A stretch of 60,138 bases of DNA, the filler included, from Leucoraja ocellata (taxonomy: Eukaryota), in the NCBI GenBank assembly GCA_036785375.1. It is 2 parts of 2 records of this genome, joined end to end, with 100 filler letters (N's around TTAATTAATTAA, not from the genome) between each part and the next. Parts side by side here need not be neighbours in the genome. Positions count along the whole stretch, not along the records: positions 30,984 to 60,138 come from JAWMAR010003146.1; 1 more part is not named here. The stretch is one strand, 5' to 3'. The notes under the pieces were generated by a model. That model had not been told where the DNA came from, ran no database searches, and saw only the letters and a program-made list of their open reading frames with translations. This document shows, piece after piece, positions 4,721 to 60,138 of this stretch (position 1 is the first letter of the stretch; each line of letters opens with the position of its first letter). The position numbers and the translations under genes were made by a program.

Positions 4721-4759
4721 TACAAGGGAGGGTAGGGATTATAGGGTTTAAATTCACCG

Positions 4760-18171: not shown

Positions 18172-21100
18172 GTTTCTTGTTCTTGGTTCTTGGTTTCTTG
18201 GTCCTCCTAAATATTCCAACTGGAATTTAAAGTGGAGGTGGTGAAGGGAGGGATTAAACCAGAAAGGGTTATTGGGAAGAAAGAGCTACTTTAAATTTAG
18301 TTGCATCTGGTTGGGTAACTATAGTTGGGTGGAGATTATTCCATGCTTTAATTGTGCGTGGGAAGAACGAATTGCTGCACGCATCTGTCTTTGTAGCTGG
18401 GTTCACAAATTGGATCGAATGCCCTCATCTGCACCTAATTGGTTTGGGTTTGGTGTAGGTCTTGTAGTCTATGTCGAGCTGACCATTTAACATTTTGTAA
18501 AAACAGGTCAAACGGTGAGCTTCACGTCTGGCTTGGAGAGGGTTCCACCCCAGAGAATTCAGAAGTTTGGTGACAGTCGTTTCTCTCTCACAGGTGTTAG
18601 TAACAAATCGAGCTGCCTGTCTTTGGACACGTTCGATGGATGAAATGTTTTTATTTGTGTATGGGTCCCATGCTGCAACTGCAGTCTAAATGAGGTCTAA
18701 CGAGGGTAAAATATAGCTTCTCCTTGATAGAAGTTGAACAATGATGAAAGTTGAGCCTCAGGAAGTTTAGGACACCTGTTGCGTTCACCGTTGCATGATG
18801 AGTCTGACCATTCCAACGCCGATCATTCTGCAATTTGATGCCAAGATACTTGGTTTGTTTGGATTCTTCAAGGATGGCACCAAGTATATTGTAAGATGTT
18901 TCGCCTGGATTCCTCTTTCTGGTGACACGCATGGTTTCACATTTGGAAGGGTTGAACTGCATGCCCCATTGTTGTGACCACTCAACCATAGTATCGAGAT
19001 CCTTTTGGAGAGCATCTTCATCATCAGCTGACTTAATTGGACGGTACAGCAAACAATCATCACCGAATAGTCTGGTCGTACTTGCGACTTTTTCATGGAT
19101 GTCATTTATGTAAAGCAAAAATAGGTGTGAGTCAAATACTGTGCCCTGAGGTGTACAACTCAACACTAGATGCCAATTGGAGCTATTTCCGTTCACACAC
19201 ACACGCCGAAGACGTTTTGTCAGGAAACTGGAAATCCATCGTTTCGTGTTGGAACGAATACAATAGAAGTCAAGCTTCCGAAGCAGTCTCTGGTGTGGAA
19301 TGACATCAAATGCTTTAGAATAGTCCAGCACAACTAAATCCATGATGACGTTACTATCAAGAGTCAGGTCATTTGTCGTCAGGATAAGCTGAGACTCGCA
19401 TGATCTATGCCTCCTAAATGCATGTTGGTTGTCGGCAAGAATGTTATGTTTGCTCACGTGTCGAATCGGATTACTATCAATGATATGCTCCAGCAGCAAG
19501 TACTTGTTAATGAAACAGGACGATAATTCGCTGGGTTGGTGGTTGAACCCTTCTTAAAGAGAGGAGTGATGTTGTCCTTCCTCCAATCCAGCGGAACATC
19601 ACTCGATTCAAGCGATTGTTGAAAAATGAACTGCAAAGCTGGAGCCAGTTCTTCGGCTGCGATCTTGAGGGCTTGATGCTGTATCTGATCTGGTCCAATT
19701 GCTTTTGTGGTATTGATGTTGAGCAATAACTTCTTGACACCTTCAACCTCAATTTTAATAGCAGGCATATCAGCATACGGGCTGGGCGGTAGGACTGGGA
19801 ATGATGAAGGCTCCACATCTCCCCGGGTGAAAACGTGTTGAAATTAGTTTCCAAGAGCTTCTGTTTTCGCCTGGTCCTCAGTGATCAGACAGTTGTTCAC
19901 TTTAAGCATCTGGACACCAGTGTTGTCTGTCCGTCTATATTTCACATATCTCCAAAAAGCCTTGGGTTGCTCTCCCCCAAGAATAGAAGACACATGTTGT
20001 CTTTGAGCGCTCCAAATAGCACGATCAACTTGCTTTCCCTCTCTAGTAATCTGAACAGATTTTTCAACAGATTTGACTGCCCAACACAATCTCAGCCTCC
20101 CCCACCTGGTCTGCTGACCGTTGATGCTTCCTCACCATCTCCCCTCCCTCTCTCCAATACTCCTGAGATGTCATCTGCACGGGGTCCCCCCTTCCCACCT
20201 ACTACTACACCACCAGCCCTACCTATGACTCTTCATACTGCGCAGGTCAAGATGATGCTGGACAGACTGAAGCCAGGGAAAGCAGTGGGGCCCGATGACA
20301 TCAGCCCAAGGCTACTGAAGACTTGCTCCTCAGAGCTGTGTGGTATTCTAACACACCTGTTCAACCTGAGCTTTCGTCTACAGAAGGTCCCAAGGCTGTG
20401 GAAAACATCGTGCCTGGTACCTGTCCCAAAGAAGACCTATCCCACTCACCACAATGACTACAGACCAGTAGCGCTCACTTCACATATTATGAAGACATTT
20501 GAGAGACTTGTCCTCTCCTACCTCAGGACTAGTGTGTCAACTCAAATGGATCCTTTACAGTTTGCATATCAGCCCAACATCAGTGTCGATGATGCCCTTA
20601 TTTACATGCTGCAGAGGGCGTATACACATCTGGACATCCCTGATGCATCTGTAAGAATTACAGTCTTTGACTTCTCTAGCGCTTTTAACACAATTCAGCC
20701 TCGACTGCTAGGGGAGAAGATGGAGAAGATGAAGGTGGATCCATTAATGGTACTGTGGTGTTTGGATTACCTTTTCCTCAGACCACAGTATGTGCGCCTA
20801 CAGGACAATGTCTCAAGCACCATCGTGAGCAGCACAGGGGCTCCACAAGGAACTGTGCTGGCTCAATTCCTGTTTACCATCTACACAGCGGATTGTCAAT
20901 ATAACACCAACAGCTGCTTTTTGCAGAAATTTTCAGATGACACAGCTGTTGTAGGCCTCATCAAAGGGGGCAATGAGGAGGAGTATAGAGACACAATTAA
21001 CAACTTTGTGGAGTGGAGTGCACACAATAATCTCCATCTCAACACCAAAAAAACGAAGGAGATAGTTGTGGATTTCAGGAGGGGGAGGAGGAGGACTCAA

Positions 21101-22196
21101 CCAACACCAATCACCATCAGGGGCACTGAGGTGGAGGTGGTCGCCAACCACAGGTACCTTGGTGTGCAGCTTGACAGTGAGCTGGACTGGAAGAGTCATA
21201 TGGAGGCGGTGTACAGGAAGGGACCAAGTAGACTGTATTTTTTAAGGAGGCTAAAGTCATTTAATATCTGTCAACCCCTACTGTGCAGTGTCTACCATTC
21301 AGTGGTGGCCAGTGCTCTGTTTTTTGCTGTGGCCTATTGGGGAGAAGGCGCCCGAATAGCGGACAAAAACAGACTGGATAAGCTGATCAGGAAGGTCGGC
21401 TCAGTGGTTGGGGCAGAGCAACTAACGGTCAAGCAGGTGGCAGAGGCCAGAACTCTGAAAAAACTAGGCTCAATAATGACCAACCCCGCTCACCCACTCC
21501 ACGCCCTGAAGGTGATCAAGTGCAGCATCTTCAGTCAGAGACTGATTGCACCAATGTGCAAAACGGAGAGACATAGGAAGTCTTGTATACCAGCTGCTAT
21601 AAGGTTTTATAATGCACAAACATTTTAACATTATGTATTGAAGATATCTGTTGAAATGTGTGGTGTTATGTCGGTCTTGAAGCTGTTGTGGCACTGTAAT
21701 TTCCTGTAAAGGATTATTAAAGGTTATTAAATAAAATAAAATAAATTAAATAAAAAAATTAAATTAAATTAAAAATAGTAAAGTTGTCCCAGTCCAGTTT
21801 TGTACCCCTTTTATTGGCGCGGATATAAAACTTATCTTTCTTACTGCAGAGACGTTTCAGTTTTGCAGAAAACCAAGGAGGACGCACACGGCCCTTATTT
21901 AGTATTTGAGGAACATGATTTGTAACAATATTATTGAAGGAGTTTCTCGGCCACACCCAGTTGTCATTTACGGATCTTTTATCTGGTTGCAGTTTGAAGA
22001 AATCTTTTCCCAGTTTTTTTGCTAAGACTTTAAATTCCTCGCTGTTCACATTTTTCCCCAGAGGGAAATTTTACGCGGTGGGTTTGAAGGAACTTTAAGC
22101 TTTAAGTGCAGTTTTGTTTGGATAATATAAGGATCGCTAATTCCAGCACACGATGAAACTTCCGAAATTAAATCTGGGTGTGAAGTGAACAGGAAA
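18172..22196 (-). mobile_element. CR1-clade LINE of invertebrate-like type, degenerate, split by a Rex1 insertion
   Basis: Endonuclease C-terminus (FTSHPDLI..GISD, about 22120-22196), PWFS, KAFWRYVK, KAIGPDQI, NYRPVSLTS, LDYSKAFD, RLFGDDCLLYRPI, SFFPRTIKAWNNL; (CCAAGAA)n-like tail at 18172-18201. Confidence 0.8.
20050..21775 (+). mobile_element. Rex1/Babar-clade LINE, 5'-truncated, uninterrupted RT ORF, 6-bp TSD TAGTAA
   Basis: NDYRPVALTSHIMKTFERLV, DPLQFAY, FDFSSAFNTIQP, GAPQGTVL and KFSDDTAVVGLI; stop-free to 21628; (TAAAA/TTAAA)n tail; TAGTAA at 20044-20049 and 21776-21781. Confidence 0.92.
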
Positions 22197-23585: not shown

Positions 23586-24228
23586 AGAGGAGAGGCTGAC
23601 GGAGGTGCCAAATAGGGAGCAGAAAGCTTTCCAGATACAAGACCGAAGATAGACACAAAATGCTGGAGTAACTGATCCGTTCAAGCAGCGTCTGTGGAGA
23701 GAAGGAATGACGGTCGCTTCGGGTCGACACCGTCTGAAGAAGAGTCTCGACCCGAAACATCACCCATTCCTTCTCTCCAGAGATGCTGCGTGTCCCGCTA
23801 AGTTAAGGGTCTGTCCCACGAGCATGCGACTGCATGCGGCTTGCGCGACCTAACGTGGTCGCTTGAGCCGTACGACGTCGCGGGGCCGGTCCAACTTCGG
23901 TCACCGAAGCCGTAAGGAATTGTGCGGAGCTGGTCCCGTCATTGGAAACACTGAGACTGTCCAAAAACCCCGCGCGCGAACGGCCTGCCGGCCCGCAGCG
24001 TCTTGACGGCGTACGCCTAGCACGTGGCGTTGCGTGATGACGTAACGCTCGACGCCGTGGGACGTCCAAATCCAGTCGGCCCGCCTCCTGCCCAGCTGAT
24101 TGGTGATTATGACGTCCAGACGGATCCGCGGTTGTAAGTGGGGCCGGCCCCGCGAGGATGTCCCGGCACCTTCGCCACACCCTCCCCCGGCGTGTCCACA
24201 CTACCCCCCTCCCCATGGCCGTGATCCC

Positions 24229-28742: not shown

Positions 28743-29064
28743 CTGTCCCATATTCACAAACACAGGCGGATGAGAGACAAACACCGGGTTCCGGATCCCC
28801 CTCCCCCCAATCATCCTTCCCCTAGTCTCACTCACCCCCCTCCCCCTTCTCTCCCCCTCATCTCCCTCCCGAGCTGCTTTCCTCCTCACCCACCTGCCCT
28901 GAGCGCTACCCCACTCCTCCTCACCAACTCTCCCACCCTCCCCCCATCTCATGCCCCCCCTCCAATCTCCCGCTCTCCCCCTCCCTCACCCAGTCCTCTA
29001 TTTCCTAACCTTCCCCTATCCTCTCTCCGATCTCCCGCTCCCCCCTCACCCCGCCCCCACTCAC

Positions 29065-29328
29065 CTAGGAAGACCTCGAGGGGCTCGGACAGCCCCGGGT
29101 GCTCCACACGACAGGAGAGCGGGGCCGTGTCCCCGGGCTCCACGTGGGCCCAGCGGCGCTGCTGGAAGGTGCCGTCGTGGTTGGGCAGCGTCCCGTGGGA
29201 GCGGCTCTCATCCAGGACCAGGCCGTCCCGCACCAGGTTCACCTCGATGGAGCGCGGGTAGAAGCCCGTGGTGAAACACCACACGCGGCTCCCATCCCCC
29301 GACAGGAAGATGCTCACCTCCGGCTGAA
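29065..29328 (-). CDS. MHC class I heavy chain, alpha3 (Ig C1-set) exon, cartilaginous-fish UAA-like
   Basis: ccccacag acceptor, G|gtgagt donor, 264 bp, phase 1-1. Translation VQPEVSIFLSGDGSRVWCFTTGFYPRSIEVNLVRDG...LPNHDGTFQ...SCRVEHPGLSEPLEVFL, with CxxxGFYP, LPNxDGTFQ and CxVxH motifs. Confidence 0.93.
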
Positions 29329-29574
29329 CTGTGGGGAGAGGCTCAGTGAGGGGGGATAGTGAGGGGAGGACAGTGAGGGGGGAAAGTGAGGGGGGCCAGT
29401 GAGTGGGGACAGTGAGGGGGGGAGGAACAGTGAGGGGGGGGCAGTGAGGGGGGGGGGGCAGTGAGGGGGGGGGCAGTGAGGGGGCGGACAGTGAGGGGGG
29501 GAAGTGAGGGGGGGACAGTGAGGGGGGCAGTGAGGGGGGAGACAGATTGAGGAGACAGAGTGAAGAGTGCTGAC

Positions 29575-30150
29575 AAGTGTTTGCCAGACAGGAAACAGAG
29601 AGTAGCGAATAACGGGTCCCTTTCAGAATGGCGGGCAGTGACTAGTGGGGAACCGCAAGGGCTCGGTGCTGGGACCAGCAGTGAGTAGTGGGGAACCGCA
29701 AGGCTCGGTGCTGGGACCAGCAGTGACTAGTGGGGAACCGCAAGGCTCGCTGCCTGGGACCAGCAGTGACTAGTGGGGAAACCGCAAGGCCTCGGCTGGG
29801 ACCAGCAGTAACTAGTGGGGAACCGCAAGGCTCGGTGCTGGGACCAGCAGTGACTAGTGGGGAACCGCAAGGCTCGGTGCTGGGACCAGGCAGTGACTAG
29901 TGGGGAACCGCAAGGCTCGGTGCTGGGACCAGCAGTGACTAGTGGGGACCCGCAAGGCTCGGTGCTGGTACTGCAGCTATTTATAATATACATCAATGAT
30001 TTGGATGATGGGATTCAAAGTAACATTAGCAACATTGCAGATGACACAAAGCTGGGTGGCAGTGTGAACTGTAAGGAGGATGTTATGAGGATTCGAGGTG
30101 ACTTGGACAGGTTGGGGGAGTGGGCAGAAACATGGCATATGCAGATATAT
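29575..30150 (+). mobile_element. CR1 RT fragment containing an 8-copy 42-bp tandem amplification (29636-29975)
   Basis: VTSGEPQGSVLGP repeated, then LFIIYINDLD...ADDTKLGG. Confidence 0.88.
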
Positions 30151-34017: not shown

Positions 34018-34454
34018 TTCTAATGTGATGTTTATATTCAACTAAACTCTTTATAATTTCTTGGGAACTTTACTTTCAAAAAGAAAATAAATCTCTCTGA
34101 AAGGAGAAACAAAGTCAACCTGTATGGGTAGGAACTGTTTAAACCGAAGACAGACACTCAGCGGGACAGGCAGCATCTCTGGAGAGAAGGGATGGGTGCC
34201 ATTTTGGGTTGAGACCCTTTTTCAGACTGATTAGATTCAGTCTAAAGAAGGTTCTCGACCCGAAACATCACCCATTCCTTCTCTCCAGAGATGCTGCCTG
34301 TCCCGCTGAGTTGCATTTTGTGTCTAACAAAGTCAATATTTCAGGTTAAGACCAATCACCTAGTTACATTAATTCTTTGCTCTGGCCACAAGGCTGATGG
34401 CCTGATTAATCTTTCCAGCACCTTCGGTTTATCTCAGATTTGCCACGTTCCTAC

Positions 34455-37017: not shown

Positions 37018-37571
37018 TATGCTGGATGTAGTTCATGTAATTATGCAATTTAATTACAGGGCTGCTTACTTTAAATTGGTTTTAAATGGCGTTAAAAGAG
37101 AGGACATTTGCATAAATACTGTGAGTGTTTATGTGAGGGTTGTGGCTGTTACAAAATGTACTTTGAGGTCTGCCAATGATGGTAGTTGGGATTATAATAA
37201 ACCTGCTTAATGACCGCAGTCAGCACGTGAAGAAAGAAACAATTATTCTGATTTATATTATCTCCTTTAGGTTCTTGTGCTGTTCCTTCAACAGCATAGA
37301 AATCATTTGTTCTCATCCTCTGTCTCGGCCTGAAATGTCACTTATCCATGTACTCCAGCACTCAGTGTCCTTTAGTGTATTAACCAGCATCTGCAGTTAG
37401 GGCATAAAGTCCTATGGGCTGCACAGTGAATGTGAATGCAGTCCTGAGTAACGTGCCTTACTCACCTTTACCTAACATGAGCGATAACTGATAATGTCAT
37501 AGCACAGCAGCAGCCTCAATATCCATGTCCCCATTGTACCCATCCATGCTAATCTCAGTTATCCACATTAA

Positions 37572-38128
37572 CATAGAAACATAGAAACATAGAAATTAGG
37601 TGCAGGAGTAGGCCATTCGGCCATTCGAGCCTGCACCGCCATTCAATACGATCATGGCTGATCATCCAACTCAGTATCTCGTACCTGCCTTCTCTCCATA
37701 CCCCCTGATCCCTTTAGCCACAAGGGCCACATCTAACTCCCTCTTAAATATAGCCAATGAACTGGTCTCAACTACCCTCTGTGGCAGAGAGTTCCAGAGA
37801 TTCACCACTCTCTGTGTGAAAAAAGTTCTTCTCATCTCGGTTTTAAAGGATTTCCCCCTTATCCTTAAGCTGTGACCCCTTGTCCTGGACTTCCCTAACA
37901 TCGGGAACAATCTTCCTGCATCTAGCCTGTCCAACCCCTTAAGAATTTGTAAGTTTCTATAAGATCCCCTCTCAATCTCCTAAATTCTAAAGAGTATAAA
38001 CCAAGTCTATCCAGTCTTTCTTCATAAGACAGTCCTGACATCCCAGGAATCAGTCTGGTGAACCGTCTCTGCACTCCCTCTATGGCAATAATGTCCTTCC
38101 TCAGATTTAGAGACCAAAACTGTACGCA
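37572..38128 (-). mobile_element. CR1/HER1-like LINE 3' fragment
   Basis: ORF 37671-37934; (ACATAGAA)n tail. Confidence 0.9.
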
Positions 38129-39547
38129 ACCTTAACCGATTAAGTCCGTAACCTTCTCTGCCTTGGTGAATCAGGTGTTTGTCTCTTGATGCTTCGTAAA
38201 TATTGTGTGTGTGCGCGTGTCTGTGCGTATGTCTGTGCGTGTGTGTACGCGTGTCTGCGTGTATACCTTCCCCATCTCTAGAACAACATATTTCAGACTG
38301 CACCAATCCTCTGTAACGAAAATTCCCCCTCGCATTGGTGTGATGTCTGTATGGTCGTGAGTAGTCGCCCAAAGAGTCGTACCTTTTTCTGGTCGCCGCT
38401 GGATTTTCAACATATTGAAATTTTTCGGCGACCTTCTGTGCGACTATGACGGGTGCCGGCAGTCGGCGAATAAAACGCATGTGGAACAGGTCCATAAGCA
38501 TACTACAACCCTGCAGGTATGCACGCCTGTAGCAGTGATGAAGAAATGAGATTTGAGAACTACATACCATGAAGAAGGATAAGAAGGCCTTTCACAACAG
38601 AAAAAAGAATTGCAGGATGTGGTCTCTCCAAACCCTATGAATGGTATGCTCTGTAGGAAGCAGGAGACTTCTAGCTAATTGGCTGCAGGTCTCATTTTGG
38701 CCTGATAATTGATTTAATTGTTACTTTGAACTCAGTAGCTACTTCTTGAAAGTACAGGTTTAATGAAACGCAATGCTTGCAGCTGTAATTTACAGAGTCG
38801 ATGAAAAATCTTGTACAAATTGTTAAAGGTAGTTTTACATGCATTGACGTTATTTTCGAAGTACCTGAATACAAAGGTGTCAGCTGTAATTGATTTAATG
38901 TTGTACATGTAACTGCCCCAAACCAATTTCATTTAGTATCTCAGAACAGAAAGACGTTTTTTATTCCTTTAATCATTTTAAGCTTTTAACGTATTGGTTA
39001 AAAATGTAAAATTCCATCAAAGTTTTCAAATCTCCATGTTAATATTCTTCAGAGCAGTAATAAAACGGTGGAGTTCAAAATACTTGACCTCGTTGTAAGG
39101 AGCTGAATGGTGCTGGTCTGGCCCCACACCTAGAATTGTCAGTGGCGCAGTAGTGGAACCGCTGCCTCACAGCGCCAGAGACCCAAGTTTGACCCTGACC
39201 ATGGGTGCTGTCTGTGCAGAGTTTCTACGTTCTCCCAGTGACCGCTTGGGTTTCCTCCCACATTCCAAAGACGTGCGGGTTTGTAGGTTAATTGGCCCCA
39301 GTGCGTAGGATGCAAAAGTGTGATAACATAGAACTAGTGTACGGAAATAGACACAAGCTGCTGGAGTAACTCAGCGGGACAGGCAGGAGAGAAGGAATGG
39401 GTGACCCTTCTTCAGACTGATGCAGAAGTGCAGTGTAGTTGTTCAGACTAGTGTATGGAAGATGGATGGTCGGAGTGGACTCAGTGGGCCAAAGGTCTGA
39501 CACTAATCTACCGGAGAAGAGAACTAATCTCACTTGCATTCTGTACC

Positions 39548-40380: not shown

Positions 40381-42420
40381 AATAAACCGTTGAACAGTGA
40401 AGTCTGAGTGAGGACTTGGTTTCACCGATGCAGGTGCTGACACTGTCACCCAGACAGGCTCAGACAGAAGATAAGGTGGGCAGCAGAGATTTGGCTCAAC
40501 ATTTGTTCTCTGATATTTAAAAACACAAAATTCTTAAAAATAACTAAAACATTAAAAAAAAACCATCTTTCTCTCCCCGTTCAAACCCATCAAAGTCTTT
40601 AGAATCTCAGATCTAAATTGTGTCTTAGTGTCGATACTGCTGTAGATTGGAAGGTAGTGATGAATTTGCTGCTATATGTTAGTCAATATGTTTTGGAATT
40701 CTGCAATGGCAAATTCAGTCCAAAACTTACTAAAATGTGCCAATAATATTTAGCCCAATCATTTAAGAGATGGATCCACAGCGATCCAGACCACATTTAT
40801 CTGGTGGAGAAAAGGAATGGGTGACGCTTCGGGTCGAGACCTTCTTCAGAATGAGGGTCGGGGGAGAGGGAAAATAGGGATATGAAAAGTGTTCCTTTTT
40901 CCACGCTGTGTCTCTAAACTACACTAAACTAAAAGAAAGTGACCAAATAGCTAGCCTGCCATTTTTGGCTTCACGTTTCTGGCAACTTGTTCGATATGTT
41001 TTTTGCTGAAATGAAAAATTTGCAAAACCCTGAAATAAAATGATTTGTGGAATTTAATCATGCCCATACACTGTCACTTTTTAATTACAACCTATTTCTC
41101 AGCGGAAAGAGCCATTGACCACTTTTTGTAATAAAAGTGGATGCCGGCCGGGTGGTATAGATTGTGGTGAATTGTAACTGCGCTAAATTGAATACAGTGT
41201 TATTAGTGGTGAGGCAGGCAGCTGCTGCCTGTTGGTCTGTTTAGAATGAACTATTATCAGATAGTTGTGCATCTTTGAAGTGCTGGTTGAGACTTGGCCT
41301 GAAGCTTTGATAGCAGAGGCATCGATCAGGCATTAGTCTGTTTTACTACCTTGTCTGAATATTGATTGCCCGTTGAATCTCTGCTTTCTCTGCTTCCTTG
41401 CTTACCTGCTGGCACAGCCGGCCCAAGAAGTCTTTTTGTGACAGCTGCTTTGGAGACACAGGAAGTATTATTAAGTTTTAAACAACAGAGCCATTGTAAA
41501 CTTCATTTGGCTCAGACCGACCTTCCCTTACTGTGGTCTTACAGTATATTCTGTAACCATAATATCCTGATTTGATCTATGTTTCCAGACCCTTGCTGTG
41601 ACAATAAATGGCCTTCCCCACTTGCGCAATTTTCTTCGGCGACTGCCGGCACCCGTCATAGGTCGCCAAAAATTGTCAAAATGTCAACATGTATGTATGG
41701 TTGTGAGCAGTCGCCCAAAGAGTCGTACCTTTTTCTGGCCGCTGTAGGATTTTCAACATTTTGAAATTTTCAGCGACCTGCTGCTACTATGACGGGGGTG
41801 GTCGGTGAGATTGCCACACACTAAAGGCAAATCTCCAGTCTATTTAATGTGTTGCCTTTAATGATGAGGATCAAAGAATCCCTGAACTACTTGGCCCATT
41901 GATCATTACAGGGTGACAACCACTACACACCTCAGTTTGCAACTCACCATTTCATAATGGATATCATAAAGGCTTTTTAACCTCCTCACATCAAGAGTAA
42001 CTGGCAGCATGCGTTTCTCAAAAGAGTCCGTTTTGTGATAGACTGAACCCATAGGATGGCCACAGCTCCACATAGAACCACATGGTACATCTGAACGACT
42101 ACCTGAACTAAAATCATAGCCTCAAACACATTGCTCCTTTGTGAGACTGGCATAGAGTCTTTGCTCACAGAAGATTCTTAGCAGATCAGCCCTCGTTGTG
42201 TGCACTTTGTAAGCAACTCTTGGTAGATGATTATTGGTGTTCAACTACATTGCCAACAACATTGCATTGGTGAAGTAATAGGTGTCCTATTCCTTCTCTC
42301 CAGAGACGCTGCCTGCTCCACTGACTTACTCCAGCTTCTTGTGTCTATCTTCGCTGTAAACCAGCATCTGCAGTTCCTTCTTCTCATTCTATTTATAATT
42401 TGTATTTGCATAACACTAAT

Positions 42421-42750
42421 GGCCCTGTCCCACAGTACGAGTTCATTTCCAAGAGCTCTCCCTAGTTTAAAAAAATCAAACTCGTGGTAAGCTCGGAGAA
42501 TGAACGTAGCGGGTACGTCGGAGCTCGGGGACGTCGCTTAGCGGCTGGTAACGCTAACGGCAGGCACTCGGGAAGACTCGCTAATGGCAGGTAAGCTCGG
42601 GAAGACCCGTGAAGATTTTTCGACATGTTGAAAAATGTCCACGAGAGCCCCGAGTACCGACGAGCGGCCATTACCGTAAATATCCGAGTTCGAATCAGGG
42701 CAAACTCGGGAGAGAGCTCTTGGAATGAACTCGTACCGTGGGACAGGGCC
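42421..42750. mobile_element. MITE (PIF/Harbinger-like), TIR of about 40 bp starting GGCCCTGTCCCAC
   Basis: GGCCCTGTCCCACAGTACGAGTTCATTTCCAAGAGCTCTC versus its near reverse complement at 42712-42750; TAA/TTA-type flanks; no coding capacity. Confidence 0.8.
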
Positions 42751-44581
42751 GTTAAATTGTCAGTATTAAATCCCAAGGAAGATGGATAAGGTCCATCAGA
42801 CGACATGAATGAATTTGGTGAAGCTGACACAGGCGGCCTTTAATGAAGGAGCCATGTACAAGCAGCTGCTTGTAGATGCTCTATTCTATGCTCAGTGTAC
42901 ATTGAGGAGGATTGCATATCTGTGGTTAGTAATAAAACCAGGTTGGATTATACTTAAGTAAAATATTTCTTCAGCGTGTAAGTTATGAACAATGTCACTA
43001 ACAGCATTGGCGTTGCAGTTTTAGAAAGTCGGCAGCTCAATCTCCCTCCTGGGATAAATAAAGTTCTATCGTATTGTAAAAGTTCTCCTGTAATGAACTG
43101 CAGAAAATAGATTAGATATTTTCACTTGCAACTATTTTTCTATAAGTAGGATTGCAGATTGTTTCATAATGCTCATGGTCGGTTAGAACTTATGAACAGT
43201 ACAACCATGTGTCGGAGGGAGATGCAGATATTGGTTTAGATGGAAGATAGACACAAAAAGCTGGAGTAACTCAGCGGGACAGGCAGCATCTCTGGAGAGA
43301 AGGAATGGGTGACGTTTCGGGACATTTGTGTCTAACAGTACACCCATGATCCTTTTCTTTCTGAATGAACAAAAATACTTTGGATTCAACACTTTTTGCT
43401 TCTCAAATGAAATTGCTCCTGTCAGGAACAGTTTGTTGTGCCCGGATGGAGCGTTGTGCATGGATTTTCCAGGAGCTACCTTGTCTCTCAAGCATAACAC
43501 ACACTGGTCGAAACGTCACCCATTCTTTCCCTCGATGCTGCCTCACCCGCTGAGTTACTCCAGCATTTTGTGGCTACGAGTAAGGAGTTTGTACGTTCTC
43601 TCCGTGACCTGCGTAGGTCTTCTCTTGGTGCTCTGGTATCCTCCCACATTCCAAAGACGTGCAGGTTTGTAGGTTAATTGGCTTGGCATAATTGGAAATT
43701 ATCTCTAGTGTGTGTGGAATAGTGTGAGTGTGCGGGGATCGCTGGTCGGCGCGGACTCGGTGGGCCGAAGGACCGGTGATTTAAAGTGTATTAAATATCG
43801 ACATGCGCCTGCCTGTTTTACCATAACGTTTATAGTCTCTTGCAACTTATCACTATTCTCTTTACATTTCACAATATTGCCACAAATCATCCCAAGAATT
43901 GTTTTTAAGTGAAACAAAATTTGAAGACGCCAATCTTTAGAGGACAGAATGTTACTTGTTTAATGATGCATAAATTAGTGTTAATGTTACTGTTTTGAGC
44001 AAATTTAAACTATTCCCCACTTGGTGTTTGGCAAAAACGGAGTTGTTTAAAGATGATGTGGCTTGTGGTTCGAGTGGAATACTTAATCAGTCTGTATCAT
44101 CCAGGTCATCAAGACAATCCCTTTCACAAAGATAAGCACACAGTGCTGGAGTAACACAACAGGTCAGGCAGCATCTCTGAAGAACATGGATAGGTGACGT
44201 TTTCTTCACATCCGAAACATTACCCGTTCATGTTCTCCAGAGATGTTCCCTGACCCGCTGAGTTACTCCAGCACTTTGTGCTTATCTTTGGTATAACCCA
44301 GCATCAGCAGTTCCTTTACATTACATCCTTTCGTTGAAGGGTTTTGGCCCGAACATTATCTATTTCCTTCGCTCCATAGATGCTGCTGCACCCGCTGAGT
44401 TTCTCCAGCATTTTTGTGTACACTGATCTGTTCTGTATTCATGCCTTCTATATTCTGTTGTTTTGTTTTTTTTTGCCCGACTGTTCAGGAATTGATTTTT
44501 TACTTGTGCTGCTTGTTTTACTGACAATTGCTAAAGATTGGTGAATTGTTTACTCTCTCTTTCCCTGCCTTTTTTGAACAG

Positions 44582-48276: not shown

Positions 48277-49797
48277 TGACTCTTATTACTTTATTATAAC
48301 TATTTTGCAGAATGTGCAAAGTTTTAAACTTATCATTTATTCTCATATAACACTCCAAACCATGAAGGAATTGTAGCCAATATTACCAATGCTGGTGAGC
48401 GATATGGGAACAAGAGCGTGCTTAAAATATTGCGGCTAAAATCACTGAATAGCTGACAAAATTATGTGGTCTCAATGCTGGCATTGGTGAGAAGCAGATT
48501 ATCATAATGTGCCAACGCCAAGCTTCATCTGCAAGTGAAAAAAGATCAACAAACATCAAAGATGGACACAAAATGCTTTAATAACTCAGAGGAACAGGCA
48601 GCATTTCTGGATGGATGGAATGGGAGATGATTTGGGTCAAGACCCTTCTTCAGATGTCAGCGTCTGAAGAAGTGTCTCAACCTGAAATGTCACCCACTCC
48701 TTCTCTCCAGAGATGTTCCCTGACCCGCTGAGTTAGTCCAGCTATATGTGCCCAACGTTATCGCTAAGAAAATCAAGGGATATGGAAAGAAAGCATTTGG
48801 ATGATCAGCCATGATCGTATTGAAAAACGTACAACTCTTTGGGCGACTACTCACGACCATACAGGCGTCATGTGTCGACATGTCATGGGGTGATGCCCGT
48901 ATGGCTTGTGAGTAAGTAGTCACCCAAAGAGTCTTCCCTGTGTTTGGTCGCCTCTGGATTTTCAACATTTTGAGACATTTCGGTGACCTGCACACAATAC
49001 TCCAGGTGCTCCTGATGCTGTAAACTCCTTGTGTGGAGGAAATTGATAACAATCTGGAGAGAGTAAAGTTGGATATGATTGGTGGGTGGTTGATGGTCAG
49101 TATCGAGTCAGTGGGCCGAAGGGCCTGTTTCAGTGCTGTATTTCTCTTTGACTACAATAGTTTATGAAGTTGGGAGTAGAGGATGGGAGGCATATGTCGA
49201 GCAGGAGAACTTGGTTGAAAAACACGTTTGTTATAGATTTGATACCACGTATGTTAGACAACATTTAAAGATGTTGGTTTCAATAAAATACTTTTTTTTA
49301 ATATTTCTCTTCAAAGAAACCTTAGAGAGAATTCAATAAACTTCTGTACTGTGGTATGATATGTTTTTGATTGTGGTGTGAAAATAGCTCTCCAATCTCA
49401 CCGAGTTATATCTATTTTTATGGTTTGGGTCACCCTTACTAAGAGAAATGCAATTTAAATAATTTAGTTCTGGGTGGTAAGAAAGGGATGCTTCCACAGA
49501 TGGTCATTGATGGGAGAGATTCTAAATTACAAGTGGTAAATACATTGAAAACTGAAAGGTCTGTTTCATTGTGAAGTTACATGTGTGGGAAGAAGGTTTC
49601 TATGCCAAACTGACCACTTTCTGATGTGAAATTAGTGTGTTAGGCTGCCCTAGACTGCATGGGATGCAAATGAATGTCTGGCACCAGACCTACCAGTGAG
49701 GTTTTCAAATCCCTTGTACAACATAAGCTGTGGAGAAAAACACAAAATGCTGGAAGTCAGTGGGTCGAACAGCATCTGGGGGGGAATCGACAGACTA

Positions 49798-52716: not shown

Positions 52717-54659
52717 TGAAGTGGGGTGGCTATATCAACGGTGCTGAAGCGTTGATGGTTGAGAGCGTCAGGTTCCTCGGCATAAATCCCGCCAACAATT
52801 GATCCTCATCCAGACACCTTGAAGCTGGAGCCAGGAAGGCAGGACAATGCCTTTAGCCTCGGAAGGCTAAGGAAGTTCGGCATGCCACCTCTCCCTCCTA
52901 CTAATTTCTACAGATGCACCATAGAAGGCATCTAGTCAGGATGCAGGTAGACAAAAATGCTGGAGAAACTCAGCAGTTGTGGCAGCATCTATCAGGATGC
53001 AGCACAGCTTTGCCCAACACTGCACTGAACTGCAGACAGTTGTGAATCATGTAGACCTCCCCCGACTCTCAGTCTGAAGAAGGGTCTCGATCCAAAGAAG
53101 GATCTCAACCCAAAACATCACCCATTCCTTCTCTCCAGAGATGCTGCCTGTCCCACCGAGTTACTCCAGCATTTTGAGTCTAGTACTAACTTTTATTCTT
53201 GTATTTTATACTTGTCTTATTTTATTTTAGCATGTTTTTATTTTCTATTCTTTTTAGTGACTGTTTGTAATTGCTTTTGATTGCTCTTTAATGCTTTGTG
53301 TAAAGCACTTTGAATTGCCTTGTTGTTGAAATGTGTTATATAAATAAACTTGCCTGCTATCTTCGGTGTAAACCAGCATCTACAGTTCTTTCTTACACAT
53401 AGACCAGCCCCTGTTAACTCCTTCTATACTTCCAGTTGATCTCTCAGTCTGCCTTGTTTTGGCCCTTGCACTTTTCATGTATCTGCAGTTCCTCTGTTGC
53501 TGTTACACTATTCTCCACTCTGTTTATTTTCTCTTTTGCACTACCTGAGGTACTCGTGTCTGCCGTGAATCGCTTGGATAGCACACATCAATGTCTCTTG
53601 CTACACACAAGAATTAACAAACACCAATATTCTTATGAGTGACACACATTCTAGATCGGGTTGAGAGCTGCTTACTTATGGTAATAAAATATCAGTGGTG
53701 AAAAGTTCTGCTCCTCTCCCAACTTATAAATTGAGTAGCTTATGTTCCATTTTAAGGACAGTATCACTAATAACTTTGTGCTACAAACTTCACAAGTTAT
53801 GTTCAACTCACAACCTTTTATCCTTTGATGTAAGTGCTGGCGTTTGTGGACAGAAACTTTATTTTTCTTTTTGCAATCATTTGCAGAGGTATAAGAAGAA
53901 AGAACAGCTTGGTTGACTTTACTGTTGTGTGTGTAATAGTGTGCATTCTCTTTCACTATACTTTATAATATATGTTCCCTTTCAGCTAATAAAATATTAA
54001 TCTGAATTGACATTGGAAGAAGTTGTATCAAATTTAATTTCACATTGGTCATGCAAAATTCTATTTAATGTAGAAAATAATATGAACATCTGCAGTTCCA
54101 GATACAAACATATCACATTTAGAAATTTGAACACTCCACACAACTGCTTAAAAAAATGAATTTTCATTTTTGCGCCATTTCAAGTGATTTTGTTTATTTG
54201 ATCTTTTTGATTGATTTGAAATATTTTAAGTTTATAAATTATTAGAGTGTTAGATTATTAAATTGTTAAATAGCTTGAAATGCAGAAATAGTTACATAGT
54301 TTTGAAAAATAATAATACAAAATCAATTGATTTAACAAAAGATAGCATTTGTATATCGTTACAAATTGATACAGTAACTGAGCAGTGTATCCTGTAGCTG
54401 CGGAAAGCTAGACTGTACGAAAGATATTTTTGGACAAGCTATGTTTGGAGTATTACATGGTGGTTTGGTCACCCTATTACAGGAAGGATGTGGAGGCTTT
54501 GGAGAGGGTGTAGAAGGTGGTTTGAGGGGAGAAATATATACAATTTTGAGAGGCATCAATAGAATATTCAGGCAGAACCTTTTTCCCAGGGTAGTCACGG
54601 CTTTACGGCCAACGAGATGTGTGACAACTTTACCACAATCCACCACAGTCCCCAAGAAT

Positions 54660-54839
54660 CTCTGCGTAGGAAGGAACTGCGGATGCTGGTTTAAACCGAA
54701 GATAGACACAAAATGCTGGAGTAACTCAGCGGGACAGGCAGCATCTCTGGAGAGAAGGAACGGGTGATGTTTCATCAGTTTCGACCCAAAACGTCACCCA
54801 TTCCTTCTCTCCAGAGACGCTGCCTGTCCCGCTGAGGTA
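54660..54839. mobile_element. Head-to-head PLE-derived hairpin element, TSD CCCCAAGAAT
   Basis: Inverted arms of the pLTR repeat; direct repeat at 54650-54659 and 54840-54849. Confidence 0.75.
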
Positions 54840-55045
54840 CCCCAAGAATTTATGTTATCTTTGGTGGTGGATATAATCCTAGCACACGCTGGAGTGGCTA
54901 AGTCTTTATCCTGTTGCAGCATCCCTGTGTTCATTAAGTAATGAACCCTGCACATCCATGTTACAGCCATTTCAAACATGTTACATATGTCATTATACTG
55001 GATGTGTCGACTTTCGATTTAAACCAGCATCTACAGTCCTTTCTA

Positions 55046-55271
55046 AGCCCCTGTCCCACTTAGGAAACCTGAAGGGAAACCTCTGGAGACTTTGCGCCCC
55101 ACCCAAGGTTTCCGTGCGGTTCCCGGAGGTTTCAGGTGGTTGCCGGAGGTTGCAGGTGGTGGAAGCAGGTAAGGAGACTGACAAAAACCTCCGGGAACCG
55201 CACGGAAACCTTGGGTGGGGCGCAAAGTCTCCAGAGGTTTCCGTTCAGGTTTCCTAAGTGGGACAGGGGCT
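55046..55271. mobile_element. MITE with near-perfect TIRs of about 85 bp starting AGCCCCTGTCCCAC
   Basis: Arms 55046-55132 and 55185-55271 are reverse complements with about one mismatch; short spacer. Confidence 0.88.
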
Positions 55272-56218
55272 ATTATACTATCGTTTGATTTATCCTTTAC
55301 TGTAATTATCTTTAATTATTTTGTTATTTGTATAGGTTCAAGACTGCAACCCTTTTTTTGTTCGTGAATCTACACAATTGGATTTATTTTTAGTTTCTGT
55401 GTGCTGGATTGCTGTTGATACAGTGTTACTGTAAATCAGATGTCAAAAATGGGAACGAAAGTTGTTGAATATTTCAACAGAAAATACTCTCCCATCCCCC
55501 CCCTCCCCCCAAAAAAATACTTTTCATTTAAAAAAAAAATCAGAAGATCCATAGTCTACTTTTTCAAGTATATGTCTAAATCATTGTGCTGCTGCAAGTA
55601 AGAATTTAAGCGTTCTATCTGGGATATATGACACTAAAACACTCTCGACTCTTGACCAAGCTTCATTGCTTATAAAGAGGTCGCTGTAAGTTTGTGTAAC
55701 AGGGGATGTGCACTCGATAATTCCCTCTCTGGGACACTTGCCTACAAAGCTATTTTGACTATTGAATTACAAACAAAAGTAGTGGAAAGAAAGAAATGCT
55801 GCCAGCACTGGAGATGTGGAATAATGCAGGTGATAACAGCATGAAAGATTTAAATTAATGCCAACCATAGGTCTTCCTCAAAGAAGGTCCACAAGTAGCA
55901 GAATGTTTTTTTTTCATGTATCCTCGAGATTGGGCTACTGTCTACAGCCATCTATATTTTGATGCACCAATTTATTTGGTATACAAAAATGCTGGAGAAA
56001 CTCAGAGGGTGAGGCAGCATCTATGGAGCAAAGGAATAGGCGCCTATTTCCTTCGCTCCATAGATGCTGCCTCACCCGCTGAGTTTCTCCAGCATTTTTG
56101 TGTACCTTCGATTTTTCCAGCACCTGCAATTCATTTGGAACAGCTTTGCTTAATGGTTTTATTGTGATTGGTGCAGTTTGCGACGTGGCTGCAGCAAGTA
56201 TTCGGAGCTCAGCCCTCA

Positions 56219-56472
56219 CTAGACGCGTTGGCAGACCCGTAGCCTCGAGTTGCCTTGAGACGAGTCTTCGTTCTGGTGGCGGCAGGCCAAGCCTGGTCCG
56301 CAGGCACACCGCTGGAAGATCTCTGGCCCCTGAGGGCCATCCTTCCTCCCTCGTTTCGAGCAGACCTGGCCTTCTTTCAGGACAGGCCGGCAGATCTTCG
56401 ACCAGAAGTGACGGGCGCAACACAGTCCAGCGGAACAATCTGAAGTTCGCAGGCACGTCTCCCCTTCCAGAC
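56219..56472 (-). CDS. DKK4: Dickkopf-4, last exon (Cys-rich domain 2, colipase fold)
   Basis: ccttgcag acceptor, phase 1. Translation [65 protein letters not shown]...RLRVCQRV*. The RGxKDxxQxPEIFQRCxCGPGL segment is DKK4-like rather than DKK1/2-like, and the gene converges on POLB as in mammals. Upstream exons not found in the window. Confidence 0.88.
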
Positions 56473-56561
56473 CTGCAAGGTGAAGAGTATTTATGAGCAA
56501 GGACATTTGCTCAGCTTATATCATTAAATCTCCATATACACAGCTTGCACGAGCACATATT

Positions 56562-56842
56562 TCAAAGTCAAAGTCAACTTTATTCGTCACGTACACATAT
56601 GAGATGTGCAGTGAAATTAAAAGTGGCAATGCTCGCGGACTTTGTGCAAAAAAAACTGCAAAACAGAATGGAATAGAATCACATATTCACATATTGCATA
56701 TTTGTGGGAGGAATAAAAGAAAAAAAACAGCAATTTAAAAAAGTCACCACACAACAGTTCAGTAAAGTTAGTCCCTGGAGAGATAAGTTTACAGTCCTAA
56801 TGGCCTCTGGGAACAAACTCCTTCTCATCCTCTCCGTTTTCA
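56562..56842 (-). mobile_element. Rex1/Babar LINE 3' end in a DKK4 intron
   Basis: TERMRRSLFPEAIR motif on the - strand; (TTTGAC)n tail. Confidence 0.6.
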
Positions 56843-57198
56843 GCATTTGCCTGCAGGATGTTCCATCACACAGCTAGCAATTGGTTACCACAGTTTAGTT
56901 TGCCCACACTGAACAAGAAGGGTCTCGACCCGAAACGTCGCCAATTCCTTCGCTCCTAGGCCCTGCCTCACCAGCTGAGTTTTTCCAGCATTTTTGTCGA
57001 CCTTCAGAGAGATTGCATTCATCGAAACAGGTGTAGGTTGCAATCAATCTGGCGTCAACAATCAAATAGAACAACTTGTCCTACAACATTAGGCTGTGCA
57101 CGCCATACGCAAGAAGAAGAGGTCTACCTTTGATTTTTCCAGCATCTGCAGTTCTATCTTCTACGGTCTGGAGAAGACTGGTCTGTACAGCAATATGT

Positions 57199-57357
57199 TT
57201 AAGAAGGAACTGTGCAGATGCTGGAAAATCGAAGGTAGACAAAAATGCTGGAGAAACTCAGCGGGTGCAGCAGCATCTATGGAACGAAGGAGCATCTATT
57301 TCCTTTGCTCCATAGATGCTGCTGCACCCGCTGAGTTTCTCCAGCATTTTTGTGTAC
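57199..57357. mobile_element. Head-to-head PLE-derived hairpin element, 16-bp TSD CTGTACAGCAATATGT
   Basis: Direct repeat at 57183-57198 and 57358-57373; inverted arms. Confidence 0.82.
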
Positions 57358-59086
57358 CTGTACAGCAATATGTCTGGAGAAGGGTTTCGGCCTGAAAAGT
57401 CGCCTATTTCCTTCGCTCCATAGATGCTGCCTCACCCGCTGAGTTTCTCCAGCATTTTTGTCTACCTTCGATTTTCCAGCATCTGCAGTTCTTTCTTAAA
57501 CACTCTCTGGACTGGTTTGATTTCACTGAATTTTTATTTTATCTGTGTATTGAGTTAGCATTAATTTCAGGGATTTAACTATCATCCTTGTCATAAACAG
57601 TAACCAGGAAACAATATTCTTCCTTTTTATATTATAGCCCATAATTTAAAAATGCAATCTAATTGACAAGACAAGATTTATTCAGACATAATCTTTGGGA
57701 GCCCAGTCACAAACTTAAAATCAGAAATCTTATTGTTATAAAATTGTTGATTTCACAAATTGATTCATCCAGTTTCAATTTGGTTTACTGTCACGTGTAC
57801 CGAGGTACAGTGAAAAGCTTTTGTTGCGTGCTAACCACTCAGCGGAAAGGCAGTACATAATTGCAATCCAGCCATTCACAGTGTACATACATGATTAGGG
57901 TAAGGCTATATTTACGAGGGAGTTAGATGTGGCCCTTGTGGCTAAAGGGATCAGGGGGTATGGAGAGAAGGCAAGTACAGGATACTGAGTTGGATGATCA
58001 GCCATGATCATATTGAATGGCGGTGCAGGCTCGAAGGGCCGAATGGCCTCTACTCCTGCACCTATTTTCTATGTTTCTATCTAAGGGAATAATATTCAGT
58101 GTTTCTCCCGCTCATTGGATATCTAACAGAATAATGATTAGGAAGTGATGTAAGTAAATGAATGTAGTTTGCAGTTAATGATATTTGCAGTGCAAAGATT
58201 AGTACAATAACAGTTAAAACTAGAAAGAAGGGTCTCGACCCGAAACATAACCATTCCATGTTATGCAGGGCTGTGCAGGAAGGAACTGCAGATGCTGCTT
58301 TAAGCCGAAGATAGACACGAAAAGCTGGAGTAACTCAGCGGGACAGGCAGCGTCTCTGGAGAGAAGGAATGGGTGACATTTCAGGGACCCAAAACGTCAC
58401 CCATTCCTTGTCTCCAGAGATGCTGCTTGTCCCGCTGAGCTTCCTCCAGCTTTTTGTGTCTTTCTCCAGCGATGCTGCCTGACCCAAGTTATGCATCAAC
58501 CAGCATCTGCAGCTCCTCGTTTCCACATCTGGAAAGAAAGGTAGCAGATTTCCTTTTTTCTCTCCTTCTATTCCCTCTCTGTAAATGCATACAGTGTTCC
58601 CACCACTTAAAGCTCCGTAGGCAAATTCCCACAGCATTTAATCTGATTATCTTGAGAACAGGGTCGACTCCTGTGCAGTGAGGCTAATATAAAGAATATG
58701 ACAATACCAAGCCCTGTAATTTAACATGTCGGGTCACAATTAGAAGCTCTACCACACTCTTAAAAACTAAACTCTCCACATATTTAATAAGTTATAAACA
58801 TATGGAATTGATTCACTGGATGCATTTTTTAAGTTGCCATTAGGGCACTCACTCACTACAAGGTGGTAAAGAAATGTTTTGCTGTAATTTCCCGAGTCAT
58901 ATTTATAAATGAGGGGAAGAGCAGGAGGACTCTTAATTCAGTAATTACAGCTTTCTTTAGTTCCCCTCCTGAATGTGTTGGCACTGACGCCCAATGTCCC
59001 ATTAAATCCTCAACCAAATCCTGCACTCTTTAGATGTGGGCTTTGTGAATTAGTAGAGGATCCATATCCAATTCCTGCATGGCTGA

Positions 59087-59330
59087 AGGTACACAAAAAA
59101 GCTGGAGAAACTCAGCGGGTGCAGCAGCATCTATGGAGCGAAGGAAATAGGCAACGTTTCGGCCCGAAACCCAGAAGGGTTTCGGCTCGAAACGTTGCCT
59201 ATTTCCAGAAGGATTTCTGCCCGAAACGTTGCCTATTTCCTTCGCTCCATAGATGCTGCTGCACCCGCTGAGTTTCTCCAGCTTTTTTGTGTACCTTCGA
59301 TTCTCCAGCATCTGCAGTTCCTTCTTAAAC
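59087..59330. mobile_element. Head-to-head PLE-derived hairpin element, 13-bp TSD CCTGCATGGCTGA
   Basis: Direct repeat at 59074-59086 and 59331-59343; near-perfect arms of about 75 bp; duplicated partial hammerhead stems in the loop. Confidence 0.85.
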
Positions 59331-59474
59331 CCTGCATGGCTGATATTCTTCCCCCTTCTTTCACAACCTGATACCACAGGGTCAATCACTGACCACAAAT
59401 TGCTGCCTTATTTAATGTCTGACACCCTCCTAGTTTAGACTCAAAAGGCGGGACAAGCAGCATCTGTATTCAGA

Positions 59475-59502
59475 CTGAAGAGGGGTCTCGACCCGAAACG
59501 TC
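59475..59502 (+). ncRNA. Minimal type I hammerhead-ribozyme motif within a PLE-derived repeat (59445-59605)
   Basis: CTGAAGA-G-GGGT CTCG ACCC-GAAAC-GTC. Confidence 0.62.
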
Positions 59503-60138
59503 ACCCATTCCTTCTCTCCAGAGATGCTGCCTGTCCCGCTGAGTTACTCCAGCATTTTGTGTCTATCTTCGGGTTAAACCAGCATCTGCAGTTCCTTCCT
59601 ACACAACCTCCCTAGTTTGTTACCTTCTGATACGAGAGTCATAGAGTCATGAGAACAGGCCCTTCAGCCCAACGTGCCCCATCTACACTTGTCCCTCCTG
59701 CCCATAATGAACTCAACCTATCCTATCCAGGTACCTGTTCAACCTTTCTTTATAGCTGGTACCCTCTAATCAAGGCAGACAATAGACAATAGGTGCAGGA
59801 GTAGGCCATTCGGCCCATCGAGCCAGCACTACCATTCAATATGATCATGGCTGATCATCCACAATCAGTACCCCGGCAGCGCATATAATCGGACATAACT
59901 TTTCTTCAAATTAGTTTTGATTTACACCGCTGAGATTTTGAAGACCTACAACTTGATGAAATTTAACTGAAGTGAGTTTAATTGCAAAAACAATATGGTT
60001 GGTGTAGGTCCAACTCTGAATGATGTAATAGCTTAGTTTAGTTTAGAGATACAGCGTAGAAACAGGCCCTTCGTCCCAGCAGGTCCGCGCCGACCAGCAA
60101 TTCCCGCACATTAACACTATCCTACACACGCTGGGGAC

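Follow-up and report, generated by a model that had tools for sequence, protein, structure and literature searches.

Short head-to-head hairpins in the genome of Leucoraja ocellata are the short extreme of ordinary insertions of a Penelope-like element (PLE), each being a single insertion of two head-to-head copies of the PLE end, and their repeat unit consists of the pLTR of a Neptune-type PLE together with its 35-nt tail. We consider it probable that hairpins are made anew at each landing, with both cut ends of the target priming reverse transcription on one PLE RNA and the cDNA ends then being joined. Arm ends are labelled T where they fall at the tail site, at unit position ~128-137, and S where they fall at the short site, at ~94-101. 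The window, meaning the whole analysed stretch of 60,138 nucleotides, was joined from two stretches (1-30883 and 30984-60138), and the census of adjacent arm pairs covers a sample of 1.358 Mb containing 716 arms.

All nine head-to-head inverted pairs of the preliminary description are present in the window, some with re-set ends (55978-56135 and 58273-58465). Its other observations also held, namely the asymmetry of tailed and short arms, the match of the repeat to the 3' end of a PLE at 15428, and three exact flanking direct repeats (TSDs), verified as 10, 16 and 13 bp at the hairpins at 54660, 57199 and 59087; its figure of about 20 repeat copies was an undercount, as 38-41 arm matches were found. 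Pairs of sequence group B lie at 23642-23805 (right arm stopping early, TSD not found), approximately 34130-34326 (left arm with a deleted tail remnant, right arm with an S end, 8-nt central insert), 44129-44316 (old, with the S arm on the left and the tail arm on the right) and 48559-48750 (old; tail unrecognisable, through either decay or an exception to the one-tail rule). The group B hairpin at 54660-54839 (54650-54849 with its TSD, 54650-54659/54840-54849) has its tail arm on the left and an internal end on the right; its TSD was read directly from the sequence, since the early stop of the right arm hid it from the automated TSD search. Another group B hairpin, with the tail arm left and the S arm right (58273-58465), appears to sit inside an older B arm (58225-58257 ... 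58463-58485). In group A, the hairpin at 55978-56135 (S arm left, tail arm right; 55968-56140 overall) is centred at the predicted ribozyme cut site and has a possible 11-bp TSD with one mismatch, and that at 57199-57357 (tail arm left, S arm right, 4-nt central insert) is bounded by its TSD at 57183-57198/57358-57373 (57183-57373 overall), immediately 3' of which follows a single A arm with tail (57374-57502, + strand). The third, at 59087-59330 (S arm left, tail arm right), carries a 34-nt templated duplication in its centre and a TSD at 59074-59086/59331-59343 (59074-59343 overall). Further single arms on the + strand were found at 56915-57005, with an S end, and at 59465-59605, a complete B unit from ribozyme-like core to tail end.

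The degenerate Neptune-type PLE of the window occupies 15428-17606 on the minus strand, with an RT region (17606-16449), a GIY-YIG region extending to ~15618, a pyrimidine-rich 3' UTR and a pLTR (15527-15428) that ends at the S site. This copy contains stops and frameshifts and lies within a segment duplicated, with the same flank, at at least 11 other loci; a DNA search with it returned mostly such segmental duplicates rather than independent insertions. An intact relative in the genome (L115) has a single ORF of 1230 aa starting from Met, whose RT region precedes a C-terminal GIY-YIG region. Its Pfam matches are both below the cut-off (RVT_1, E 1.9e-6, 28.2 bits against a cut-off of 29.6; GIY-YIG, E 0.013), and DKG and YIGET motifs are visible. 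Upstream of the GIY-YIG region it has CX4CX2C, which fits the CX2-5CxxC linker between RT and EN described as a Neptune/Nematis feature (PMC8557442). The predicted source is accordingly a Neptune-type EN+ PLE, placed by domain order and by a linker trait common to Neptune and Nematis. In L115, L121 and L125 the order is 5' pLTR, tail and ORF start, the pLTRs deriving from a partial tandem and the tail being the start of the body, and the 3' pLTR of L115 ends at S. Of 39 C-terminal PLE matches, 13 are followed downstream of the ORF end by a group A arm and 13 by a group B arm, which bears out the proposal of two subfamilies. ORF-bearing copies of 2-4 kb show the same two-armed architecture as the hairpins; the S arms of the long copies L129 and L130 measure 2.4-3.6 kb and their inverted T arms 0.6-1.3 kb.

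Adjacent head-to-head pairs numbered 126 in the 1.358-Mb sample (null mean 8.1, maximum 14 in 200 runs), as against only 8 tail-to-tail adjacent pairs. Twelve sampled pieces of 100 kb held 93 hairpins, between 1 and 20 in each, which corresponds to ~78 per Mb, and the copy number is ~10^5 per genome. Flanking direct repeats were enriched among the sampled pairs, a TSD score of at least 9 being reached by 42 of 125 same-subfamily pairs and by 0.13 with shuffled flanks. TSDs measured 9-22 bp with a mode of 14-16 and were 65% AT. For young hairpins, the second allele was an empty site with one TSD copy in two of the four cases tested and was filled in the other two; one single arm likewise had an empty allele with a single TSD copy, and for the hairpins of the window's second stretch no indel of hairpin size separated the two haplotypes. 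The earlier view of the units as abundant, asymmetric, non-coding and PLE-derived, each landing in a single event flanked by long TSDs of variable length, is borne out. That the units are a DNA-transposon MITE with terminal inverted repeats is hardly credible: a palindromic look is all that speaks for it, whereas the TSDs vary between 9 and 22 bp instead of being short and fixed, the termini are unequal and the sequence is that of a PLE pLTR.

The two arms of a hairpin obey a one-tail rule. One T end was paired with one S end in 34 of 35 classifiable group A pairs (37 examined; p 1e-9) and in 53 of 67 classifiable group B pairs (88 examined), and this held for every TSD-bounded pair (A 24/24, B 16/16). 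The 14 group B pairs with like ends (10 SS, 4 TT) include none bounded by a TSD and therefore may be decayed copies or chance neighbours. An independent set of 50 hairpins sharing the commonest junction, 45 of them with a TSD, contained 37 T+S pairs, 12 with T and another end (11 internal, one at 119, just below the T cut-off), one with S and an internal end, and no TT or SS pair. Among TSD-bounded single arms of group A, 14 of 16 ended at S, so S is itself a priming site. The overlap between target and element averaged 1.4-1.7 nt against a null of 0.38, a figure that includes some ascertainment bias.

Arms of one hairpin are also closely related. Diagnostic alleles were common to both arms (mismatch 9.5% vs 42%), the site that splits the youngest subfamily was concordant in 29 of 29, and eight singleton variants were common to both arms (null 0.18). 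Arm-to-arm conversion would also account for these private variants, as would fold-back or a pair of RNAs from a single source locus. In the last case each DNA end would prime on its own RNA from one active locus, and an asymmetric protein dimer would set the T/S rule. Allele concordance would follow if one locus dominates in the germ cell, and a symmetric centre would be accounted for; yet an extra rule is needed against TT and SS pairs (0/50; 1/35), whereas one RNA with two sites yields T/S directly, and we regard this alternative as unlikely.

The junctions differ among hairpins: 86 of 87 junction keys were distinct, and the window junctions of the 55978 and 57199 hairpins occur genome-wide only in the two haplotypes. 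Junction centres were variable, with overlaps and templated inserts, and clustered at palindromic stretches of the pLTR; later deletion of the centre in unstable palindromes could account for part of this variety. The commonest junction, at the unit start, has 634 exact copies. This recurrence would suit a non-autonomous SINE- or MITE-like hairpin family, whose members would be transcribed and then re-inserted in one piece by the PLE machinery, and because the units do retain an initiator-like motif and the RT start site, they may now and then be re-mobilised. The 634-copy class is, however, uniform neither in its centre base (from the T arm in 18 and the S arm in 19, split inside subfamilies too) nor in either end or its subfamily alleles; the remaining junctions are unique, and long ORF-linked copies carry the same sets of alleles. 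Across 125 hairpins A>G changes (211) were no commoner than T>C changes (231), so there is no strand-biased excess of ADAR-type scars, which would be a sign of whole-hairpin re-insertion. Mobilisation of the hairpin as a unit, which the preliminary description allowed, is thus not supported, given the distinct junctions, the even centre base and the equally two-armed ORF copies, and such a family is very improbable.

The 5' ends of the arms bear on a further alternative, in which RT would run from the tail site to the 5' end, turn on its own cDNA and stop at S, with centre deletions diversifying the junctions later. Fold-back makes the T+S combination automatic and accounts for the shared private variants, the internal ends of the non-tail arm and the clustering of junctions at palindromic pLTR stretches. 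Against it, the S arm reached further 5' than the T arm by at least 5 nt in 41 of 87 hairpins (T arm further in 20, equal in 26), and by kilobases in L129 and L130. Moreover, in 19 of 37 hairpins the S arm supplied the centre base, the loop would be 1 nt, and the TSD-bounded single A arms mostly end at S. We therefore judge fold-back improbable, more so than priming on two RNAs.

Under the favoured reading of double priming on one RNA, the GIY-YIG endonuclease would cut the two strands 12-16 bp apart, consistent with the TSD mode and the empty alleles. One DNA end would then prime at T and the other at S or, less often, at an internal site, in line with the one-T rule and the mean target/element overlap of 1-2 nt. 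Both cDNAs would mostly run off the 5' end at the ribozyme-like unit start, probably the start of pLTR transcription. A sharp step is seen here, as coverage of A arms climbs from 20 to 97 of 146 between positions -10 and +20, and positions 1-9 hold the start of 8 of 13 TSD-bounded single arms in A and of 9 of 11 in B. Finally, the single-stranded cDNA ends may anneal through short self-complementary stretches and be repaired by microhomology-type end joining, as suggested by the variable centres, overlaps, templated inserts and the 18:19 centre base. Single arms with a TSD would be events where one primer failed, and the 2-4 kb copies would reflect RT extending further along a tandem RNA. In L1 twin priming, both target ends likewise prime on one RNA and the inversion is joined by microhomology; different RNA parts are copied there, whereas here the two primers, starting from two fixed sites, would copy one and the same ~100 nt and so produce a palindrome.

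The layout of an inverted pLTR with a one-sided tail is already published: Pen2a_Av of Adineta has an adjacent inverted, 5'-truncated pLTR and a one-sided tail of 30-40 bp (PMC3846280), and a general scheme is given in fig. 2 of PMC8557442. Of the earlier suggestion of an abundant, poorly described family, the abundance stands and the novelty of the layout does not. The hairpins resemble published EN+ PLE insertions in the inverted 5' pLTR, the tail at one end, a TSD enclosing the entire unit, an overlap at the point of inversion, partial tandems (L115) and an empty allelic site. They differ in that most are ORF-less and 100-250 bp long, in a TSD mode of 14-16 rather than 8-10 bp, and in their ~10^5 copies; the tail is optional in the published elements (PMC3846280, PMC8557442), whereas young two-armed copies here almost always have exactly one. 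A literature search found no account of the ORF-less hairpin class or of a two-ended mechanism.

According to the available portion of the in vitro study of Poseidon PAc from Anolis, a PLE of a different clade from the hairpin source, the protein nicks and extends both strands, initiates RT internally at two sites bounding the tail, and is predicted to form a dimer (PMC11167929). The hairpins share with it the two start sites bounding the tail, an internal start near the pLTR/ORF junction, two extended strands and AT-rich targets. The same portion leaves the inverted arms unexplained and reports neither a strand difference in start sites nor target/RNA homology, which, set against the anti-correlated ends and the overlap of the hairpins, counts against double priming (PMC11167929). 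Minimal hammerhead motifs of PLE pLTRs include, in Schistosoma, pairs on opposite strands separated by 100-700 bp (PMC4209133). Our units resemble these in the ribozyme-like core at the unit start, and the published motifs are mostly single ones from truncated PLEs, as well as the opposite-strand pairs; that study did not analyse them as TSD-bounded insertions, and in our material an arm seldom begins where cleavage is predicted. Like the hairpins, non-LTR retrozymes are short, non-coding, pLTR-related vertebrate repeats dependent on PLEs, and they bear a hammerhead (bioRxiv 10.64898/2026.07.22.740005); they form head-to-tail tandem arrays, whereas the hairpins are head-to-head with no sign of self-amplification. 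This comparison covers head-to-head units, the 1.358-Mb sample also holding 55 same-strand adjacent pairs.

The origin of tandem and inverted PLE structures is still undefined (PMC8557442), and the available part of the sole in vitro study leaves the second-strand steps open (PMC11167929). These stubs give countable rules, namely one tail per pair, a common template, either arm longer and a random centre base, which reject simple fold-back and predict the products of a reconstituted reaction. More tentatively, and on balance short of being our expectation, PLE integration in general may be two-ended and symmetric, in contrast to LINE TPRT. A dimer on one RNA would assign each cut end to one of two start sites 35 nt apart, annealed head-to-head 'strong-stop' copies of the 5' leader would be the default product, and full-length copies would arise only by loading on the downstream pLTR of a tandem transcript. 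If so, the ~10^5 hairpins per genome would be a fossil record that solves the origin of PLE inverted repeats and tails. Hairpins also serve as polymorphic presence/absence markers.

The unit core, read by eye, contains CUGANGA, a 4-bp helix II, GAAA, NUH and a 2-bp helix I, and is a putative hammerhead only. Rfam searches of 31000-60138 and of the L115 pLTR detected no hammerhead and gave only sub-threshold miRNA-like matches, attributable to the hairpins, which can thus be mis-annotated as miRNA precursors as well as MITEs. Minimum-free-energy (MFE) folding of the pLTR gave nothing unusual (z -0.2) and did not form the hammerhead. Ribozyme cleavage was rejected as the main source of 5' ends, as only 7 of 146 arms start at positions 32-35 and, by exact-match counts, the predicted clean cut-site junction had 0 copies vs 634 for the unit-start junction. 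The unit start bears an initiator-like motif, which we take to match the consensus. RNA reads from another organism piled over the unit on both strands with no pile-up at the start and are uninformative on a promoter; loose ends, in that organism as in a third, again coincide with the T, S and 5' positions.

The hairpins, in which two pLTR-end copies (arms) stand head to head, exist in large numbers and are well accounted for as the smallest version of an insertion type already known for Penelope-like elements (PLEs). The window consists of the whole contig C5384 and C3146:62001-91155, the latter with a near-identical second copy on C33; the 3.44-Gb assembly includes haplotype-like duplicates of this kind. 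All nine head-to-head pairs and all three exact TSDs of the preliminary description were found in the window, and its figure of about 20 repeat copies was too low, about 40 arms being present. In a 1.358-Mb sample (both window contigs together with 36 kb of C33, plus twelve blocks of 100 kb at arbitrarily picked positions), 716 arms formed 126 head-to-head adjacent pairs against a null mean of 8.1, and 8 tail-to-tail pairs, with both arms from the same sequence group (A or B) in 119 of the 126. The expected enrichment of flanking direct repeats was borne out for 125 same-group pairs, of which 118 lie in this sample and 7 at PLE-centred loci: a TSD score of at least 9 was reached by 42 versus 0.13 with shuffled flanks, and the share climbed with youth (13/22, 16/31 and 13/72 from youngest to oldest pairs). 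The twelve blocks held 93 hairpins in 1.2 Mb, coarsely about 2-3 x 10^5 per assembly. Of the proposed abundant non-autonomous family the abundance stands; the separate class gives way to a minimal known PLE insertion. Same-strand adjacent pairs in the 1.36-Mb sample (43 ++, 12 --) are possibly short tandem pLTR arrays of the retrozyme type.

Protein search located numerous PLE copies with long uninterrupted reading frames, and 20 loci were retrieved. One of them, L115 (C10:3746500-3756499, minus strand), is an intact full-length Neptune-type PLE. On its 5' side, a partial copy ending in a pLTR is followed by the 35-nt tail and then by the ATG of a 1230-aa ORF (locus 2733-6422) in which a CX4CX2C linker separates RT from GIY-YIG; on its 3' side, a pyrimidine-rich UTR precedes a pLTR stopping at the short site, and a 14-bp TSD encloses the whole, partial tandem included. 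Such a linker is a mark of Neptune/Nematis (PMC8557442). Because L115 is intact and many further copies have frames of >900 aa, the family is probably still active. The L115 layout defines the group A unit as the pLTR from its ribozyme-like core to the short end S (position ~95-100), plus the tail, with which the element body begins, to the tail end T (~132-137). Group B, older and mixed, also has arms downstream of PLE ORF ends (13/39 C-terminal matches). The two-armed form with TSDs occurs in long copies, as an S end with an inverted tail arm (L129, L130) or a tail end with an inverted short or truncated arm (L134, L131), and other long copies have one arm and a TSD. Since long copies share this form, hairpins are the short extreme of a PLE insertion continuum.

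Flank search of four young hairpins revealed an empty second copy with a single TSD for two (C30:4052494 versus C814; C609 versus C439) and a filled one for the others; a single arm of 135 bp, flanked by a 15-bp TSD, was polymorphic too. Two further insertions on C3146 are missing from C33, namely 572 bp at window 37567-38138 and 456 bp at C3146:27934-28389, the latter (TG...CA, 5-bp flanking direct repeats) looking like a polymorphic solo LTR.

As for their origin, we infer an order of steps in which a staggered cut would leave two 3' overhangs, each likely priming reverse transcription on PLE RNA, one at T and the other at S; most simply, both primers would sit, dimer-held, on one RNA molecule, both cDNAs would mostly reach its 5' end, and the cDNA ends would be joined through microhomology-type repair. 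The evidence shows directly the geometry, the TSDs, the empty sites and the following regularities of arms, ends and overlaps. One tail per pair was found in 34/35 classifiable A pairs (37 examined), 53/67 B pairs (88 examined) and 40/40 TSD-bounded pairs; the 14/67 old B pairs breaking this rule count against two-ended priming. Arms within one copy were closer than arms of different copies, as anticipated for hairpins created at each insertion (diagnostic-site mismatch 9.5% versus 42% in A, 31% versus 43% in B). The site splitting the youngest subfamily was concordant between arms in 29/29, and singleton variants common to both arms numbered 8 against 0.18 expected; other differences were mostly private to one arm (57/62), so arm conversion is not pervasive. 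These patterns suggest a common template for both arms. The use of two RNAs, one per DNA end, appears unlikely. S is a start site in its own right, because 14/16 TSD-bounded single A arms end there, and target/element overlap averaged 1.7 nt for T ends and 1.4 nt for S ends, where chance would give 0.38. Among 87 T+S hairpins, the S arm reached further 5' in 41, the T arm in 20, and 26 were equal. The 5' arm coverage has a sharp step at the unit start, and 17/24 TSD-bounded single arms start at unit positions 1-9. This step may mark the transcription start, the sequence at that point matching the initiator consensus YYANWYY, or alternatively a stall of RT at the C-rich UTR; RNA reads taken from a different organism revealed no accumulation at a start site.

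Junctions were mostly not common to copies, as an amplifying hairpin would have them: the 87 T+S hairpins had 86 distinct junction keys (overlap of at least 2 nt in 19, near blunt in 17, inserts in 51), and two window junctions were confined to the two haplotypes genome-wide, the second search pattern containing a private deletion. Later palindrome deletions may inflate this variety, which counts against hairpins being made anew. If any hairpin acted as a master, it would most plausibly be the one with the commonest junction, which has 634 exact copies and lies at the 7-nt quasi-palindrome opening the unit. Among the first 50 listed of these, ends were T+S in 37, T+other in 12 and S+internal in 1, with no TT or SS; both ends were ragged, and 45 had TSDs (mode 14-16). 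Of the 37 copies that could be classified by their centre base, 18 had it from the tail arm and 19 from the short arm, a split that holds in each subfamily. This base would be fixed if a master hairpin or fold-back were at work, but not if two cDNA ends of identical sequence paired in antiparallel orientation around a mismatch at the centre. A self-amplifying family is extremely improbable, and fold-back with later deletion of the centre is very unlikely. Hairpins are likely built anew, not amplified.

The anole PLE in vitro agrees with two-ended priming (PMC11167929): its protein, a predicted dimer, nicks and extends both strands and starts internally at two sites that delimit the tail, although that study found no strand asymmetry or target homology. 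Other reports describe a TSD-flanked unit with an inverted pLTR and, optionally, a tail on one side as typical PLE structure (PMC3846280; PMC8557442), opposite-strand hammerhead pairs 100-700 bp apart in Schistosoma (PMC4209133), very short PLE insertions through 5' truncation in Chlamydomonas (PMC9977147) and tandem retrozymes as PLE derivatives (bioRxiv 10.64898/2026.07.22.740005). No account of an ORF-less hairpin class or the two-ended mechanism was found in the literature listings searched or in the papers cited here, which do not extend to key subscription papers, supplements or Repbase/Dfam. With these arm and junction rules counted, a question about the mechanism of PLE insertion that is acknowledged to be open becomes directly testable.

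The hairpins at window 58225-58520 and 57122-57502 sit within or abut older arms of their own repeat, a hint that the element inserts into its own pLTR, as reported for PAc. Tail-to-tail elements at 55046-55271 (near-perfect terminal inverted repeats of 87 bp, 99%; directly after a PLE tail fragment) and 42417-42754 (31 bp, 94%) resemble genuine DNA-transposon MITEs. The first window stretch lies inside a segment duplicated at at least 11 loci, and an exon at 28949-29641 (-), probably MHC-class-I-like, matches the Pfam Ig C1-set domain (E 1.2e-8). Non-LTR RT open frames (RVT_1) at window 19808-21628 (+), 3312-4367 (-) and 18651-19553 (-) are unrelated to the PLE.
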